A DNA stretch of 64,000 nucleotides from Syntrophomonadaceae bacterium. GTDB taxonomy: Bacteria; Bacillota; Syntrophomonadia; Syntrophomonadales; DTU052. Of this stretch, positions 2,393-61,063 are shown piece by piece. Location of the stretch: assembly GCA_012729505.1 (NCBI GenBank), contig JAAYDA010000046.1:15384-79383 (forward strand). The letters run 5' to 3'. The notes under the pieces are model-generated. The model had not been told where the DNA came from, searched no databases, and saw only the letters and a program-made list of their open reading frames with translations. The translations under genes were made by a program, and so were the position numbers. How positions within the stretch are numbered: position 1 is the stretch's first letter; each line of letters starts with the position of its first letter.

Positions 2393-2524
2393 TCCGATGA
2401 CTAATCTGCCCTAAGGCCCCCGCCTCTATAGGCGGCGGGTGCCCAAGGGCAGTTAAGTTCCTGGATCTGTGCGACTAAGCTTCAGATGGAGTCAAAACTC
2501 CACCTGAATCAAGTCTTACTTTAT
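2393..2524 (+). ncRNA. Conserved ~131-nt two-hairpin element, copy 1 (candidate cis-regulatory leader RNA or dispersed repeat)
   Basis: Near-identical to 17508..17639 and 60362..60492 (about 6-8 differences by manual alignment). Lies in the divergent intergenic region, 137 nt upstream of the GT2 gene start. Confidence 0.6.
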
Positions 2525-17452: not shown

Positions 17453-17481
17453 TTGGGAGACTAGGAAGATAATTGTATAAT
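17453..17481 (+). promoter_or_regulatory. SigA-type promoter (TTGGGA-17-TATAAT) driving the glmU leader
   Basis: TTGGGA at 17453-17458, a 17-nt spacer, TATAAT at 17476-17481. The predicted TSS is about 20 nt before the conserved element. Confidence 0.55.
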
Positions 17482-17507: not shown

Positions 17508-17639
17508 TCCGATGACTAATCTGCCCTAAGACCTCCGCCTCTATTGGCGGCGGGCGCCTAAGGGCAGTTAAGTCCCTGGATCCGTGCGACTAAGATTCAG
17601 ATGGAGACAAATCTCCACCTGAATCAAGTCTTACTTTAT
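17508..17639 (+). ncRNA. Conserved ~131-nt two-hairpin element, copy 2 (candidate glmU leader / attenuator)
   Basis: Lies between the promoter and the glmU TTG (27 nt downstream). Hairpin I: ATCC..GACT..CTGCCCT..CCGCC-loop-GGCGG..AGGGCAG..AGTC..GGAT. Hairpin II: GACTAAGATTCAGATGGAG / CTCCACCTGAATCAAGTC, then TTACTTTATT. Confidence 0.65.
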
Positions 17640-31733: not shown

Positions 31734-32500
31734 TGGAAGATCAAGGAATCAAAGCACTGATGGAGACCATGAACAAATTGTTGTCACCGGAGGGCTGTCC
31801 CTGGGACCGGGAACAGACTCATACTTCATTGCGAAGATATCTGGTGGAGGAAACCTACGAAGTGCTGGCCGCCATTGATGATGGCGACATGAATGAGCTG
31901 CGTGAAGAATTGGGAGACCTCCTGCTTCAGATAGTGTTTCATTCCGCTTTGGCAGAAAGAGAGGGTGCTTTTAATCTGAGTGATGTTGCTAATATAGTTA
32001 ACGAAAAGATGATAAATCGTCATCCTCATGTTTTCGGGCATTTAGAGATTAATTCCAGTGATGAAGTCATGCAGCACTGGGAAGGATTTAAGCGGGATGA
32101 AGGCAAGAAATCAATACTGGAAGGCATTCCCCGGCATCTTCCTGCTCTTCTGAGGGCGTACAAGCTACAGGAAAAGGCGGCCCGGGTTGGTTTTGACTGG
32201 CCCCAGGTTCAGGGGGCCCTGAAAAAACTCAACGAAGAAACTGCCGAGTTTATAGCTGCGTCCCAGGACGGCAGCCCGGAGATGATCGAAGAAGAAATGG
32301 GAGATATTCTCTTCACCATAGTCAACATAGCCCGGATGTCGGGAATTGAGCCGGAACAGGCTTTACAGAACTCCAATGCCAAATTCACCCGCAGATTTAA
32401 TCATATTGAAAGCCGCCTGAACGACGAAGGCCAGCTTCTGGAGGAAGCCGGTCTGGAAAAGCTGGACAAACTCTGGGATGAAGCAAAAGCTAATGAGTGA
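31733..32500 (+). CDS. mazG: MazG nucleoside triphosphate pyrophosphohydrolase
   Basis: 255 aa with tandem MazG EExxE motifs (LVEETYEV, EELGDLLLQ, EEMGDILF). Confidence 0.9.
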   Translation: MEDQGIKALMETMNKLLSPEGCPWDREQTHTSLRRYLVEETYEVLAAIDDGDMNELREELGDLLLQIVFHSALAEREGAFNLSDVANIVNEKMINRHPHVFGHLEINSSDEVMQHWEGFKRDEGKKSILEGIPRHLPALLRAYKLQEKAARVGFDWPQVQGALKKLNEETAEFIAASQDGSPEMIEEEMGDILFTIVNIARMSGIEPEQALQNSNAKFTRRFNHIESRLNDEGQLLEEAGLEKLDKLWDEAKANE

Positions 32501-32670
32501 GGCGGGAGACGGGAGGGGTAAGGAGTGAGGCGAGAGGAGAAACGGGAGACGAGAGGCGAGAGGCAGGCGGGAGCCAAATCTTCCTAAAAGATTTGTGCTT
32601 CCCGCTTGGTTCGACGTGGAGCGTCGAACTTCCTATGGTGAAACAGGGGGACGAGAAATCCGGCTCCTGC
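32496..32670 (+). repeat. Purine-rich GAGGCGGGAG-type dispersed element (R1) with internal hairpins
   Basis: An approximately 80-nt G/A tract starts on the mazG stop codon (GTGAGGCGGGAGACGGGAGGGGTAAGGAGTGAGG...). It is followed by the hairpins GGCGGGAGCCAAATCTT/AAGATTTGTGCTTCCCGC and GTTCGACG/CGTCGAAC. The core is shared with 53414 and 62871. Confidence 0.6.
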
Positions 32671-52624: not shown

Positions 52625-53445
52625 TGGACCAAATAATTTTGGACGGATTGAAATTCTGGGGATGCCATGGAATAACCCCGGAAGAGAAGAATAAGCCCCA
52701 GCCTTTTGAAGTCCACCTGGTTCTGTATCGGGATTTGAGCCGGGCCGGGCAGACTGATTCCATAGATGATACCGTTGATTATTCTCAGGTTTTTGCCGAT
52801 ATCCGCCATATTGTTGAAAAAGAGAGTTTCAACCTGTTGGAAAAAATGGCGGACAGAATCGCTGCTCATGTTTTGGGCTTGAATAAAGTAATTACGGCCC
52901 GGGTAACCGTGAAGAAGCTTAAGCCTCCTATTGGGGGGGAATATCGATCTTTCGGGGTGTCCATTGAAAGAAAAAGAGTTGCCGGTACTGCCTACTTAGG
53001 GTTGGGAACTAATTTGGGCGACCGGGAAAAAAATCTGACTGAAGCAGCAGGATACCTGGAAAAACTCACCTCTACCCGAGTATTAAAATATTCCTCCCGG
53101 TATTATACTTCTCCTTGGGGAAAAACCGACCAACCCGAATTTCTTAACCAAGCGGCAGCAGTCGAAACCTACTTAACCCCTCGGGAGTTACTTCAAGAAA
53201 TGCTGGACATTGAGACCCTGATGGGACGGAAGCGCCTGGAGAAATGGGAGCCTCGGATTATCGATCTCGATCTGCTCCTTTATGGCCGCCAAACAATTCA
53301 GGAACCTGATCTCACCATTCCTCATCCCTATCTGACTCAGCGGGAATTTGTCATAAGACCCCTTCTCGAAATCGAGCCTGATCTTCAATTACCAGACGGA
53401 CGGTTGTTAAAAAGTGAGGCGGGAGGAGTAAGGAGTGAGCGGTAA
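52624..53445 (+). CDS. folB-folK: Bifunctional dihydroneopterin aldolase / HPPK (FolB-FolK fusion)
   Basis: The N-terminal approximately 118 aa are FolB-like (LKFWGCHG...). The C-terminal part is FolK-like (AYLGLGTNLGD ... RIIDLDLL ... IPHP). ATG 52624 overlaps the folP stop (TGATG). Confidence 0.9.
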   Translation: MDQIILDGLKFWGCHGITPEEKNKPQPFEVHLVLYRDLSRAGQTDSIDDTVDYSQVFADIRHIVEKESFNLLEKMADRIAAHVLGLNKVITARVTVKKLKPPIGGEYRSFGVSIERKRVAGTAYLGLGTNLGDREKNLTEAAGYLEKLTSTRVLKYSSRYYTSPWGKTDQPEFLNQAAAVETYLTPRELLQEMLDIETLMGRKRLEKWEPRIIDLDLLLYGRQTIQEPDLTIPHPYLTQREFVIRPLLEIEPDLQLPDGRLLKSEAGGVRSER

Positions 53446-53580
53446 GGCGATAGGAGTGAGGGGTGAGGAGGGAGGAGCAAGTGGAATAACCCCGTGCCTC
53501 CGGCATCAATGCTGGCTTTTTTAATCTGCGTCCAACGTTCCCTCGTTCCCCTCACACTTTACGCCTCTCGCCTTACGCTC
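53414..53580. repeat. Purine-rich element (R3) forming a long imperfect inverted repeat around a terminator-like hairpin
   Basis: The left arm GAGCGGTAAGGCGATAGGAGTGAGGGGTGAGG (from 53437) pairs with the right arm CCTCGTTCCCCTCACACTTTACGCCTCTCGCCTTACGCTC (53541-53580). The centre holds CCGGCAT-ca-ATGCTGG followed by CTTTTTT. The element's 5' end encodes the last codons and the stop of folK. Confidence 0.6.
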
Positions 53581-53793
53581 CATCGCTTTGAAACAATATT
53601 TTGACAAATCTTAATGATTTGTTGTGTTATGGTGATTTCCGTGCTAAAATATACGCGAAAGTATGGTGCGGAAAAACTAGATACTAGATTTTCTCCCGCC
53701 GAACTCCTTATTATCCGCTTGTACCATTGGGGGCCAAGACGGAAATCCTGAGTAGCGGCTGGCGGTAGTCGTTGCTCTCAAGGGGGGCTTCTC

Positions 53794-57899: not shown

Positions 57900-59495
57900 A
57901 TGCAGACCAACCGATATATATCGGCAATCAATGATGATGTGCCGGTTTATAGAACTGATTTTTTAATTGTTGGCAGTGGAATCGCGGGTTTGTTTACGGC
58001 TTTGAAAGCTTCAGCCCTTGGTCAGGTAGTAGTGCTTACCAAAAAAAGCCTCAAGGATTCAAATACCGGTTTGGCTCAGGGAGGAATCGCGGCGGCTGTC
58101 CACGAAGAGGATTCCCCCTTTTTGCATCTTGAGGATACCCTGGAGGCAGGGGCTGGTCTGTGTGATATTGAAGCGGTAGATATTCTGGTTACCCAAGGCC
58201 CGGCTCGGGTCAGAGAGCTTATTGACATGGGAGCCCGTTTTGACACTGTAAATGGCACCGTCTCGCTGACTCGCGAGGCTGCCCACAGCAAAGCTCGCAT
58301 CCTTCATGCGGCAGATGCCACCGGTGAGGCTATCCGTCAGGCCCTGGTGAAGAACTGTCTGCAGGATGTCAATATACATATCAAAGAAGATAAATTCCTG
58401 ATCGATATTATTACCATGGATGACCAGTGCTGTGGCGCTCTGGTTTATGATTCCAATCAGGGGAGAAAAGAAGTCTACCTGGCCAAGGCTACCATTGTGG
58501 CCACGGGTGGGGCGGGACAATTATTTCGGTGCACCACTAATCCGGAAATCGCCACCGGTGATGGAATGGCGGCTTCATTCCGGGCCGGCTGCGAATTATC
58601 CGATATGGAATTCACTCAGTTTCACCCTACGGTTTTAGCCACGGACATAAGCTCCCGCTTCCTGATATCCGAAGCGGTCAGGGGTGAAGGTGCCCGGCTC
58701 CTGAACATTAATCACGAAAGGTTTATGCCCTCCTATCATCCTCTGGGGGACCTGGCTCCCCGGGACATAGTAGCGCGAGCCATCTGGAAGGAGATGGACA
58801 AAACCAAAAGCGACCATGTTTTTCTGGATGTAAGCCATCTGCCCAATCCGGCCCAGCGATTTCCCAACATTTATCGGACATGCCTGGATAATGGATGTGA
58901 TCTTACTCAAGACTTGATTCCGGTTTCTCCTGCCGCCCACTATATGATGGGGGGGATTAAGACTAACACCTCGGGAGAAACCAGCATATATGGATTATAT
59001 GCCTGTGGTGAGACTTCCTGCACGGGAGTCCACGGCGCGAATCGCCTGGCCAGCAACAGTCTTTTGGAAGGGCTGGTTTTTGGTCAGAGAATAGTTGATG
59101 AGGCTCACTCCATGATTTACCGGCGCAATATTAATATGGCAGAGATTTTGGCTGCCTATGATCAGGAGGATCAGCTCCATATTCCCGCCGGCAAACGTTC
59201 TCCTCAACAGGTACGTATAGATTTGAGAAGAATAATGTGGGAAAATGTAGGTATTATAAGGGATGAACAAGGTCTGAAAAATGCGGCGCGAATGGTTGAC
59301 GAATTAAATGGAGAATTAGGACCTGGTGACGATGAGCTGGAGTATTATCAAGTGCTGAATATGCTTACTATAGCTCAGGTCATGATTCAAGCCGCTCTGT
59401 GGCGTAAAGAGAGCCGGGGGGCTCATTTTCGCCGGGACTTTCCCGCCACCGACAATATACGGTGGGCCGAACACCTGATTTTTAGAAATTGGTAG
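57900..59495 (+). CDS. nadB: L-aspartate oxidase
   Basis: 531 aa with FLIVGSGIAGL FAD fold and the RLASNSLLEG motif. Confidence 0.95.
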   Translation: MQTNRYISAINDDVPVYRTDFLIVGSGIAGLFTALKASALGQVVVLTKKSLKDSNTGLAQGGIAAAVHEEDSPFLHLEDTLEAGAGLCDIEAVDILVTQGPARVRELIDMGARFDTVNGTVSLTREAAHSKARILHAADATGEAIRQALVKNCLQDVNIHIKEDKFLIDIITMDDQCCGALVYDSNQGRKEVYLAKATIVATGGAGQLFRCTTNPEIATGDGMAASFRAGCELSDMEFTQFHPTVLATDISSRFLISEAVRGEGARLLNINHERFMPSYHPLGDLAPRDIVARAIWKEMDKTKSDHVFLDVSHLPNPAQRFPNIYRTCLDNGCDLTQDLIPVSPAAHYMMGGIKTNTSGETSIYGLYACGETSCTGVHGANRLASNSLLEGLVFGQRIVDEAHSMIYRRNINMAEILAAYDQEDQLHIPAGKRSPQQVRIDLRRIMWENVGIIRDEQGLKNAARMVDELNGELGPGDDELEYYQVLNMLTIAQVMIQAALWRKESRGAHFRRDFPATDNIRWAEHLIFRNW

Positions 59496-59506
59496 GAGGG
59501 ATGCTC

Positions 59507-60349
59507 ATGAATTGGATGGAAGTGGAACAGCTAGTCCGTCTGGCGCTAAGCGAGGATATTGGTTATCGTGATATTACCACTGAGAACCTCATTGGTCCGG
59601 ACCTTCGATCTATGGGAGTGTTCTATGCAAAACAAGAAGGTATTGTTTGTGGAATTGACGTAGCAGAACGAGTTTTTTCTATACTTGATCCTACTATCAG
59701 TTTTAACATTTTGAAGGAAGACGGCGATTTAATCCGGGAAGGCGAAGAGGTGGCCCGTATTACCGGTCCCACCAGAACTCTCCTGACGGGTGAACGGGTT
59801 GCTTTAAACTTCCTCCAGCACATGTCCGGCATAGCTACCAAGACTAATGATTTGGTGGACCGGATTCGCCACTTTCCGGTGAAGGTTGTTGATACCCGCA
59901 AAACTACTCCCGGCCTCAGGGCTTTGGAGAAATACGCGGTGCGAATAGGCGGCGGGAGCAACCACCGTTTTGGTCTGTTTGACGGAGTATTGATCAAGGA
60001 TAATCATATTCGTGCGGCAGGGGGCATAACCGAAGCTATTCAAGTCCTGCAGCGCAGAATCTCCCACCTGAGCAAAATTGAAGTTGAAGTGGAAAACCTG
60101 GAACAATTGCGGGAAGCGCTTAGTGCAGGCGCCGATGTGGTACTCCTGGATAATATGGAGCCGGATATGATGAGAGAAGCGGTAAAAATCAATGCCGGAC
60201 GCGCTATCCTGGAAGCGTCGGGCGGCATAACCCAGGATACTTTGGTGGAAGTGGCCAAAACCGGTGTGGATCTGATTTCTATTGGCGGACTTACTCATTC
60301 TGCTAATGCCCTGGATATTAGCTTCAATATCATAAGTCTAAAGGATTAA
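59507..60349 (+). CDS. nadC: Nicotinate-nucleotide pyrophosphorylase (carboxylating)
   Basis: ATG 59507 lies 6 nt after GGAGGG. QPRTase family motifs (VDTRKTTPGLR, LLDNM). Confidence 0.95.
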   Translation: MNWMEVEQLVRLALSEDIGYRDITTENLIGPDLRSMGVFYAKQEGIVCGIDVAERVFSILDPTISFNILKEDGDLIREGEEVARITGPTRTLLTGERVALNFLQHMSGIATKTNDLVDRIRHFPVKVVDTRKTTPGLRALEKYAVRIGGGSNHRFGLFDGVLIKDNHIRAAGGITEAIQVLQRRISHLSKIEVEVENLEQLREALSAGADVVLLDNMEPDMMREAVKINAGRAILEASGGITQDTLVEVAKTGVDLISIGGLTHSANALDISFNIISLKD

Positions 60350-60361
60350 AGAGTCTTTTTA

Positions 60362-60492
60362 TCCGATGACTAATCTGCCCTAAGACCCCCGCCTCATAGG
60401 CGGCGGGTGCCCAAGGGCAGTTAAGTCCCTGGATCCGTGCGACTAAGATTCAGATGGATTCAAAACTCCACCTGAATCAAGTCTTACTTTAT
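60362..60492 (+). ncRNA. Conserved ~131-nt two-hairpin element, copy 3 (upstream of bioY)
   Basis: Starts 13 nt after the nadC stop and ends 17-26 nt before the bioY start. Near-identical to copies 1 and 2. Confidence 0.6.
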
Positions 60493-60517
60493 AATTGGCG
60501 AAAGGGTATTGCGGTTT

Positions 60518-61063
60518 ATGAAAACCAGAGAATTGGCTTATGCGGCCATGTTTACGGCGGTAATTGCGGCATCGGCCATTCTGACTCGTATTATTCCGGT
60601 AGCGGTGGTGCCTTTTAGTCTTCAGTCATTGCTGGTTTTTTTAGCCGGGGGTCTCCTGAACAAAAGAACGGCAGCTCTCAGTATGGTGGCTTATGTTCTG
60701 TTAGGATTGATTGGAATACCTGTATTTGCCTCTCCTCCCTATGGAGGACTTGGTTATTTACTGGTACCTTCCTTCGGCTTTTTGCTTGGATTTATTCTGA
60801 CCGCATGGCTGGTGGCCTGGTGTCTGGAACGCTGGGGCAATACAGTGATGGCCCATGTTGTTTCAGTTGCTCTGGGGATTGGGGCCATGTATCTGGTGGG
60901 GCTTCCTTACATTTATGGGGTTCTCAATTTTTATTTAGGTCAGGCGGTGGATGTGGCTTATATTGTTAAGATAGGATTTATACCTTTTATAGGCTTTGAT
61001 CTTCTTAAAGCAGGAGTTGCTGCCGGTATTAGTTTTCAGGTTCGCAAAAGGATGCTCCTCTGA
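60518..61063 (+). CDS. bioY: Biotin transporter BioY (ECF S-component)
   Basis: About 181 aa with 5-6 TM helices and the BioY family pattern ([14 protein letters not shown] ... GYLLGF). Start is ATG 60518 or TTG 60509. Confidence 0.85.

Follow-up and report, generated by a model that had tools for sequence, protein, structure and literature searches.

Within a 64,000-nucleotide (nt) stretch of a Syntrophomonadaceae bacterium contig (JAAYDA010000046.1, positions 15,384 to 79,383; hereafter the window), an intergenic repeat of about 131 nt occurs three times, and its third copy lies in the spacer between nadC and bioY. With a probability of roughly 80%, we consider copy 3 to be a recent insertion of a non-autonomous, non-coding mobile element, related to the Bacillus repeat bcr1, into this spacer. 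The element, made of two hairpins followed by TTTAT, would integrate immediately 3′ of a T-rich pentanucleotide, usually TTTAT, without duplicating its target. An original prediction, based on the DNA of the window, had wavered between a generic control module and a mobile intergenic repeat that inserts near start codons.

Empty and occupied insertion sites

The inserted block covers 60363-60492 (130 nt, plus strand) and is preceded by TTTAT at 60358-60362. From left to right, the junction comprises GGATTAA with the nadC stop (60347-60349), AGAGTCTT, TTTAT, CCGATGACTAATC...AAGTCTTACTTTAT, AATTGGCGAAAGGGTATTGCGGTTT and the ATG of bioY (60518; a TTG at 60509 is a possible alternative start). The 25 nt between copy 3 and bioY include an AAAGGG Shine-Dalgarno-like motif and are colinear with the spacer of the relative L069. 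The original prediction had located copy 3 correctly within 1 nt, 60362 being the last T of the left TTTAT, and its distances, 13 nt from the nadC stop and 17-26 nt to the bioY start, hold on the open reading frame (ORF) coordinates.

We found that contigs carrying the closest BioY homologues keep the gene order nadB-nadC-bioY-coaX-dus, and that the element is missing from the same junction in all relatives examined (L069-L075). Their nadC-bioY spacers measure 38 nt in L069 (BioY 88% identical), 31 nt in L070-L072 (74%) and 39 nt in L073-L075 (69%). With a slash marking the insertion point, the L069 junction reads GGATTAA GTGTCCTTTTTAT / TTTTCCACAAAGGGAGTTGTAGCAT TTG, i.e. ...TTTTTAT / TTTTCCACAAAGGGAG..., and that of the window GGATTAA AGAGTCTTTTTAT / 130 nt / AATTGGCGAAAGGGTATTGCGGTTT ATG. 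The 130-nt block sits exactly after TTTTTAT, and 25 nt are left to the start codon in both sequences. A comparison with empty sites had been named in the original prediction as the observation that could overturn a regulatory role; it returned a clean insertion, L069 being empty exactly at TTTTTAT. Among the fetched loci, no further empty allele was found besides L069. Taken alone, the nadC-bioY empty site cannot separate a target duplication from a TTTAT carried by the element.

This distinction is provided by copy 1, whose relatives (L080 and L081) were found via a glycosyltransferase homologue of 86% identity. The empty site in the relative reads GGCCGATTAT / CCGTTGCATATTAAT and the filled site in the window GGCCAATAAT / 131 nt ending CTTACTTTAT / CAGCTGCATATTAAT. 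The target pentamer, ATTAT in the relative and ATAAT in the window, is present once, and the right end TTTAT is directly followed by the conserved flank. Since the target is single and is not TTTAT, the right-hand TTTAT belongs to the element and not to a copy of the target. The target-site duplication envisaged in the original prediction was therefore not borne out.

The window holds exactly three copies, all on the plus strand, 92-95% identical and with abrupt borders, as determined by repeat finding and an nhmmer profile; for their 44-nt core, 0 chance matches are expected. Each copy folds into two adjacent stable hairpins. The plus strand of copy 3 reaches -59.4 kcal/mol (z = -6.8 against shuffled sequences) and the minus strand folds equally well (-67.8 kcal/mol). 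The last two bases of the left TTTAT pair into the base of hairpin 1.

Distribution, target preference and decay of the family

Searching a species-representative genome collection with a 20-nt pattern from the 5′ part of the element returned ten further copies, all in one metagenome-assembled genome (MAG; Bacillota bacterium OH_SFB_195) and with flanks unlike those of the window, while a 21-nt pattern from the 3′ end returned 53 loci in anaerobic-bioreactor metagenomes, on Syntrophomonadaceae-type contigs. After removal of duplicates, about 54 distinct further sites were left. A single 107-kb contig carries at least 7 copies, and the density on long contigs of this uncultured syntroph is about one copy per 15-20 kb, which makes the element a useful marker as well as a source of assembly breaks. 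On a simple ORF-based gene map, 0 copies lie inside an ORF of at least 100 aa. All four gene-orientation contexts were seen, with the downstream gene oriented like the element in 31 cases and against it in 21. Among the 31 copies with a same-strand downstream gene, 13 end 14-45 nt before its start; together with the empty sites, this agrees with the mobile repeat near start codons proposed in the original prediction.

Among 41 distinct full-length sites whose flanks were compared, 32 have TTTAT on the left, the others being CTTAT (2), ATAAT, TTCAT, TTGAT, TTAAT, CCTAT, GTTGT and TTTGT, and the sequence to the right of the element shows no conservation. All full-length copies terminate in TTTAT on the right, including all 13 found with the 5′-anchored pattern, so that the constancy of this end is not forced by the search. 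No terminal inverted repeats were detected: TAAGAC is all that the initial 30 nt have in common with the reverse-complemented final 30 nt, a score reached by 161 of 2000 shuffles.

In nine copies, the ORF of a converging gene overlaps the right end of the element by 1-9 nt. The overlap is of 4 nt in six of them (L018, L041, L043, L053, L063 and L067), the stop of the gene being the TAA in the reverse complement of the terminal TTTAT. This exact overlap indicates that the insertion swapped the original stop context of the gene for an identical one. As the terminal pentamer of the element is identical to its target, both flanks retain their pre-insertion context, which may explain how insertions near ribosome-binding sites and stop codons survive.

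The family also includes rearranged forms. Head-to-tail dimers with one common TTTAT (...CTTACTTTAT / CCGATGAC...) occur at L023 2131-2397, L051 4323-4589 and L068 1927-2193, which indicates that second insertions target the 3′ TTTAT of the element itself. Copies truncated at the 5′ end are found in L022/L027 and L039, loss of the sequence between the GACTAA repeats at the two hairpin feet in L053 and L067, and a shortened hairpin 2 in L010. In MAG OH_SFB_195, the hairpin 2 loop of a long form is enlarged by about 55 nt (L006 3331-3522, L007 6680-6868, L009 5397-5586 and L015 545-736); the extra segment, CCTTACAGGACTACTGATTTTATGTTCGC...TTTATAATGGAG, is bounded by repeated ATGGAG. At L014 708-897 the same segment stands inverted between the hairpin arms CAGGTGGAG and CTCCACCTG, suggesting that it was inverted across the arms or can insert either way round. 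Finally, modular variants (L048, L050, L061, L056, L066, L035 and L034) keep hairpin 2 and the TTTAT tail, but their 5′ hairpins are unrelated to hairpin 1 or additional to it; L034 has three 5′ hairpins.

To follow the decay of the stems, 45 distinct full-length copies were aligned, giving 1796 Watson-Crick stem cells, with two family-fixed G-T pairs set aside. Single stem substitutions led to G-U in 22 cases, to A-C in 26 and to other mismatches in 27, with no bias to pairing. This spectrum argues for neutral decay and not for purifying selection on a strand-specific RNA at each locus. Compensatory changes do exist between subfamilies and between genera. In hairpin 1, 10 of the 43 scorable copies among those aligned carry a compensatory change from U-A to C-G; between subfamilies, CUGCCC/GGGCAG changes to CCGCCC/GGGCGG, and some lineages have a wholly different hairpin 1. 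Such changes indicate that the fold is important to the "master" copies from which the family propagates, as would be the case if the mobilising enzyme recognised hairpins.

In 33 of 46 copies, it is the G-rich strand that carries the top strand of the element (binomial p = 0.005), a moderate bias that gene orientation confounds; at 31 of the 46 loci most of the flanking gene length is on the strand of the element. In IS200/IS605 elements the active strand is on the lagging-strand template, and the bias seen here would have that direction.

Probable kinship with bcr1 and the possible mobiliser

Using copy 3 as a blastn query against PLSDB plasmids, we obtained a match in a Clostridium beijerinckii plasmid (E 2e-4). 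The element there is laid out as TTTAT / CCGAT..., hairpin 1, CCTGGAT, hairpin 2 (TTCAGGTGGAG...CTCCACCTGAA) and ...TTTCACTTTAT. Through this C. beijerinckii variant, which gives the link, a variant-element query reached plasmids of B. cereus, B. mycoides, B. tropicus and a Bacillus sp. The Bacillus elements are 155-157 nt long, have the same two hairpins and the right end TTTAT, and are preceded by TTTAT, except for CTTTA in one of the three copies read (Bacillus sp.). They show a compensatory change, GACCCCCACC/GGTGGGGGATC against GACTCTCACC/GGTGAGAGGTC. Used as a query in turn, the Bacillus element was found in 54 Bacillus records and also in Pseudalkalibacillus and Cytobacillus, with at least 40 copies in one 5.5-Mb record. 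That record, PLSDB NZ_CP093325.1 (Bacillus sp. N5-665 "plasmid p1"; L079), has 25 listed features over 5.52 Mb and for this reason is almost certainly a chromosome filed as a plasmid.

A covariance model (R1, alignment A2) built only from 21 Syntrophomonadaceae copies recovered the Bacillus elements of L077, L078 and L079 over all 136 positions, with 59-76 bits and E-values of 1e-12 to 1e-16 (136 kb searched), and the C. beijerinckii element with 61 bits. The window and Bacillus elements have in common the strings TAAGACCCCC(A/G)CCTC and ...CACTTTAT and the arms of hairpin 2.

Prior studies have described bcr1, which belongs with bcr2 and bcr3 to the group A Bacillus cereus repeats, as a repeat of about 155 bp, flanked by TTTAT, with two independent stem-loops and compensatory changes; it is the most abundant repeat of B. 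cereus, is transcribed, and is mobile via an uncharacterised "site-specific recombination-like" mechanism (PMC6542083; PMC6199540; PMC3184786). From size, flanks, fold, copy number and host range, as compared with this published description rather than by consensus alignment, we strongly infer that the Bacillus element of about 155 nt is bcr1. The window element resembles bcr1 in being non-coding, multicopy and intergenic, with TTTAT at both ends, two stem-loops, full, partial and tandem copies, and positions differing in close relatives. It differs in length (131 nt against about 155 nt, owing to a shorter apical loop of hairpin 1), in its host, which is of an anaerobic Clostridia lineage (Syntrophomonadaceae), whereas bcr1 was published as specific to the B. 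cereus group, and in that TTTAT is not a duplication at the one informative window site. As judged from sequence and fold, the window element is best described as a homologous sister family of bcr1 and not as bcr1 itself. Repeats of this two-hairpin, TTTAT-specific type were already known, and what is new is the addition of a Syntrophomonadaceae member. Homologues of bcr1-type repeats, reported as B. cereus group-specific, are thus present in Clostridia (Syntrophomonadaceae and C. beijerinckii) and in other Bacilli.

Specificity for a pentamer on the 5′ side only, no duplication, no inverted termini and hairpins by both ends together form the signature of the IS200/IS605 superfamily and of palindrome-associated transposable elements (PATEs). 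Members of this superfamily and the non-coding PATEs show 5′-side specificity without duplication or inverted repeats (PMC4810608), and in Firmicutes IS200/IS605 elements insert 3′ of TTGAT, ATTAT or TTTAT (PMC4227781). In Geobacillus, where PATEs are present, the transposon-adjacent motif is TTTAT for ISGst2 and TTCAT for ISGst5, and a single TnpA mobilises several families in trans (bioRxiv 10.1101/2023.03.14.532601). The rare left flanks ATAAT, TTGAT and TTCAT of our family lie within this published target spectrum, and the element is like an IS200/IS605 PATE also in its T-rich target, its lack of coding capacity and the subterminal position of its hairpins. Altogether, the single-target empty site and the TTTAT/ATTAT/TTGAT/TTCAT spectrum point to IS200/IS605 Y1 transposases as candidate mobiliser, a hypothesis that is testable. 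Movement would occur by single-strand "peel-and-paste" transposition, with a Y1 (HUH) transposase of this family supplied in trans, and the element would then be a PATE; we hold the odds of this mechanism to be about even. In most modular variants the foot of hairpin 2 follows an ATAA able to pair with the terminal TTAT, reminiscent of the "guide"/cleavage-site pairing at IS200/IS605 ends. Differences exist as well: the right-end motif of ISGst2 is TTCAC, whereas that of the window element equals its target motif TTTAT, and the left cleavage site of our element, unlike in PATEs, is only about 5 nt from hairpin 1. By analogy with ISGst2 we considered a true right end at CTTAC/TTCAC and rejected it, as both empty sites put the following TTTAT inside the insert.

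Several observations weigh against a bcr1-related element moved in this way. The argument against duplication consists of one informative empty site and a few non-TTTAT left flanks, which later mutation could explain, and the TTTAT of bcr1 was published as a 5-bp direct repeat, possibly duplicated on insertion. The identification of the Bacillus element as bcr1 is drawn from its properties and not from the published consensus. The end hairpins of IS608 are alike, whereas those of the window element differ save for the GACTAA...AAGTC foot. A crude regex motif scan of the 628 kb of fetched loci gave no Y1 transposase or TnpB (two matches were spurious). Likewise, the ends of three IS605 elements from the B. 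cereus group, which have both tnpA and tnpB, gave no match to R1, and no autonomous partner was found in a search that did not extend to the complete host genomes. The orientation bias is, as said, moderate and confounded with gene orientation.

The three IS605 elements were retrieved by tblastn with an IS200 TnpA query that matched Salmonella IS200 at 99%, and their ends are apparently of the TTAC/TCAA type in two cases and TTCAC in one. The right end of the latter kind at L088 4497-4650 (B. thuringiensis pCT127 IS605, tnpA-tnpB) finishes ...GGGTAGTTCAC, that is with the TTCAC motif reported for ISGst2; it resembles the ...GTTTCAC before the terminal TTTAT of the Bacillus/Clostridium bcr1-like elements, with no wider similarity detected. 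An autonomous parent was also sought: left and right ends more than 371 nt apart were found in no locus, and no transposase-like ORF stands next to the partial copies. Scanning viral contigs for the hairpin-2 palindrome gave no match, and neither did a phage collection.

By the usual description of bcr1, the element would be a classical MITE (miniature inverted-repeat transposable element), and its two TTTATs the target-site duplication left by a DDE transposase after a 5-bp staggered cut at TTTAT. TTTAT does flank most copies left and right, published work counts bcr1 as a MITE with 5-bp direct repeats (PMC6199540; PMC3184786), and the nadC-bioY empty site suits this account just as well. However, a DDE transposase would find no terminal inverted repeats to bind, copy 1 joins an ATTAT/ATAAT target to a TTTAT right end, and 9 of the 41 left flanks deviate from TTTAT while the right one never does, the 13 5′-anchored copies included. 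We therefore find this origin unlikely. Classical MITEs such as RUP, Correia/NEMIS and ERIC are indeed alike in being 100-170 nt long, intergenic, foldable, often co-transcribed and close to genes, but they have terminal inverted repeats of 15-30 bp and a true duplication such as TA, and the window element has neither. Less likely again is a small integrative element whose site-specific recombinase (tyrosine, serine or DEDD/IS110-type) would cross over in a TTTAT core of the circle (...CTTAC-TTTAT-CCGATG...) and of the target. The tandem dimers contain exactly this circle junction, and a core on both sides is the expected leftover of such a recombination. Nevertheless, only a 5-nt motif is common to about 40 targets, far shorter than typical attachment sites or IS110 targets, no recombinase gene adjoins any copy, and the core at copy 1 is mismatched (ATAAT against TTTAT). 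Tyrosine recombinases cope poorly with a mismatched core.

A host RNA module that acts in cis as an attenuator, a processing site or a stabiliser, or a small-RNA gene, with control over bioY, glmU and the glycosyltransferase (GT2) gene, would account for the very stable fold (z = -6.8), for the placement of all three window copies upstream of, and sense to, a gene, for the many copies ending 14-45 nt before a start codon and for the compensatory changes among subfamilies; bcr1 itself is reported to be transcribed (PMC3184786). We nonetheless judge it highly improbable. The element is absent at the same junction in all relatives examined, 21 of 52 copies face an opposite-strand gene, the minus strand folds as well as the plus strand, and individual copies decay regardless of pairing. 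Moreover, Rfam gives no match, promoter and terminator signals are missing (see below), and the neighbouring genes are functionally unrelated. On these same grounds, all orientation contexts, unbiased stem substitutions, and no Rfam match, promoter or terminator, the generic control module, attenuator or stabiliser of the original prediction finds no support.

Some other known kinds of repeats were considered alongside the bcr1-like element. REP/BIME sequences are likewise short extragenic palindromes and are thought to be moved by a Y1 HUH enzyme (RAYT) related to IS200 TnpA, but REPs are single palindromes of 20-40 nt with a GTAG/CGTC tag, often in inverted pairs flanking the RAYT gene, whereas the window element is a 131-nt two-hairpin unit with a TTTAT target. 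Reverse-transcriptase spread similar to that of short interspersed elements, prompted by the conserved 3′ module and the 5′-truncated copies, was set aside: duplications of variable length and poly-A are both lacking, and several of the shortened copies look as if sequence between repeated GACTAA(G/T) feet had been deleted.

A wider proposal, which we regard as improbable, is that bcr1-like repeats form a Bacillota-wide superfamily of IS200/IS605-type PATEs that reaches from Bacillus to strictly anaerobic syntrophs, with, in its boldest version, the two-hairpin unit as a stand-alone omega-RNA-like guide scaffold. A transcript running into the right flank would then direct a TnpB-type nuclease, provided in trans, to the empty site (TTTAT plus flank). 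If this were true, a 131-nt element would enforce its own retention via a guide scaffold, and the Bacillota-wide reading would resolve the mobilisation mechanism of bcr1.

Consequences at the junction and other features

Consensus scans of the nadC-bioY interval (60350-60520) revealed neither a sigma-70-like promoter nor an intrinsic-terminator-like site, in line with the original prediction, which had seen no convincing promoter there. Hairpin 2 is followed by CTTTATAATT only, with no T run for an intrinsic terminator. Rfam 15 gave no match at the gathering threshold over the whole window, and only chance-level matches at E up to 10 between 60300 and 60560; since no Rfam model detects either the Bacillus element or genuine IS605 right ends, this lack of matches says nothing about omega-RNAs. 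The 30-40 nt spacer of the relatives leaves no room for independent signals, which fits a single transcript. Based on the operon layout and the lack of a terminator, copy 3 is probably carried passively in a nadABC-bioY-coaX transcript. Hairpin 2 ends 13 nt before the AAAGGG Shine-Dalgarno-like motif of bioY, and given this closeness the element may incidentally alter the stability or translation of the mRNA. Whatever it does to bioY would be a by-product and not designed control.

The genes around copy 3 were identified by Pfam as NadA, NadB, NadC, BioY, CoaX and Dus, those after copy 2 as glmU and prs, and those flanking copy 1 as two divergent glycosyltransferase genes (Table 1). The original prediction saw no obvious functional link of bioY to glmU or GT2, and this view holds: the sole trait common to bioY, glmU and the glycosyltransferase gene is a TTTAT-like pentamer in an AT-rich leader. 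In this reading, bioY is not under a special common riboregulator; rather, the nadC-bioY spacer gained a selfish insert, which annotators should mask as a repeat.

Table 1. Positions of the element, its parts and adjoining genes in the window; for the modular variants, positions refer to the locus named
Feature	Position	Strand	Observation
Copy 3, probable mobile element, 130 nt, CCGATGACTAATC...AAGTCTTACTTTAT	60363..60492	+	model R1, 165 bits; absent in syntenic L069-L075
TTTAT target pentanucleotide, left flank	60358..60362	+	also in L069 empty site, GTGTCCTTTTTAT / TTTTCCAC
Hairpin 1, long G+C-rich stem-loop with internal loops	60361..60434	+	folds; varies among subfamilies, with compensatory changes
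Hairpin 2, GTGCGACTAAGATTCAGATGGA...TCCACCTGAATCAAGTCTTAC	60437..60487	+	most conserved module across subfamilies and genera; blastn match in C. beijerinckii plasmid
Terminal TTTAT, right-end motif carried by the element	60488..60492	+	in every full-length copy retrieved
nadC, quinolinate phosphoribosyltransferase, upstream neighbour	59489..60349	+	Pfam QRPTase_N, QRPTase_C
bioY, biotin transporter S component, downstream neighbour	60518..61063	+	Pfam BioY; metagenome contigs with an identical protein are recorded
Copy 1, between divergent glycosyltransferase genes, left flank ATAAT	2394..2524	+	empty site in L080/L081
Copy 2, 27 nt upstream of glmU ORF, downstream of promoter-like site	17509..17639	+	repeat search, Pfam
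Modular variants	L050 5916-6042; L061 134-206; L056 4388-4532 and 10860-10939; L066 183-272; L035 1161-1275; L034 730-911		

A good sigma-70-like promoter match, TTGGGA-17-TATAAT, lies at 17453-17481, 27 nt upstream of copy 2, which places this copy in the probable glmU leader.

In UMGS/UMED contigs we observed only the last 22-25 nt of the element (CCTGAATCAAGTCTTACTTTAT), at L020 1181-1201 (the same as L060) and L038 763-783 (the same as L058), directly upstream, antisense, of gene starts. The predicted N-termini of these genes look like uroporphyrin methyltransferase and FeoB. These short stretches may be solo right ends or may reflect a different use of the motif. One mini copy, at L038 9908-9982, consists of hairpin 2 only.

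Purine-rich degenerate repeats (AGTGAGG / GGCGGGAG units, with a period of about 7-14) were also observed in the window just after gene ends, at 32491-32575, 53408-53480 and 53536-53581, with a pyrimidine-rich complementary tract about 60 nt downstream at the second purine-rich repeat site. The same repeats occur in L047 upstream of its element copy. They are a second, unrelated intergenic repeat family of this organism.

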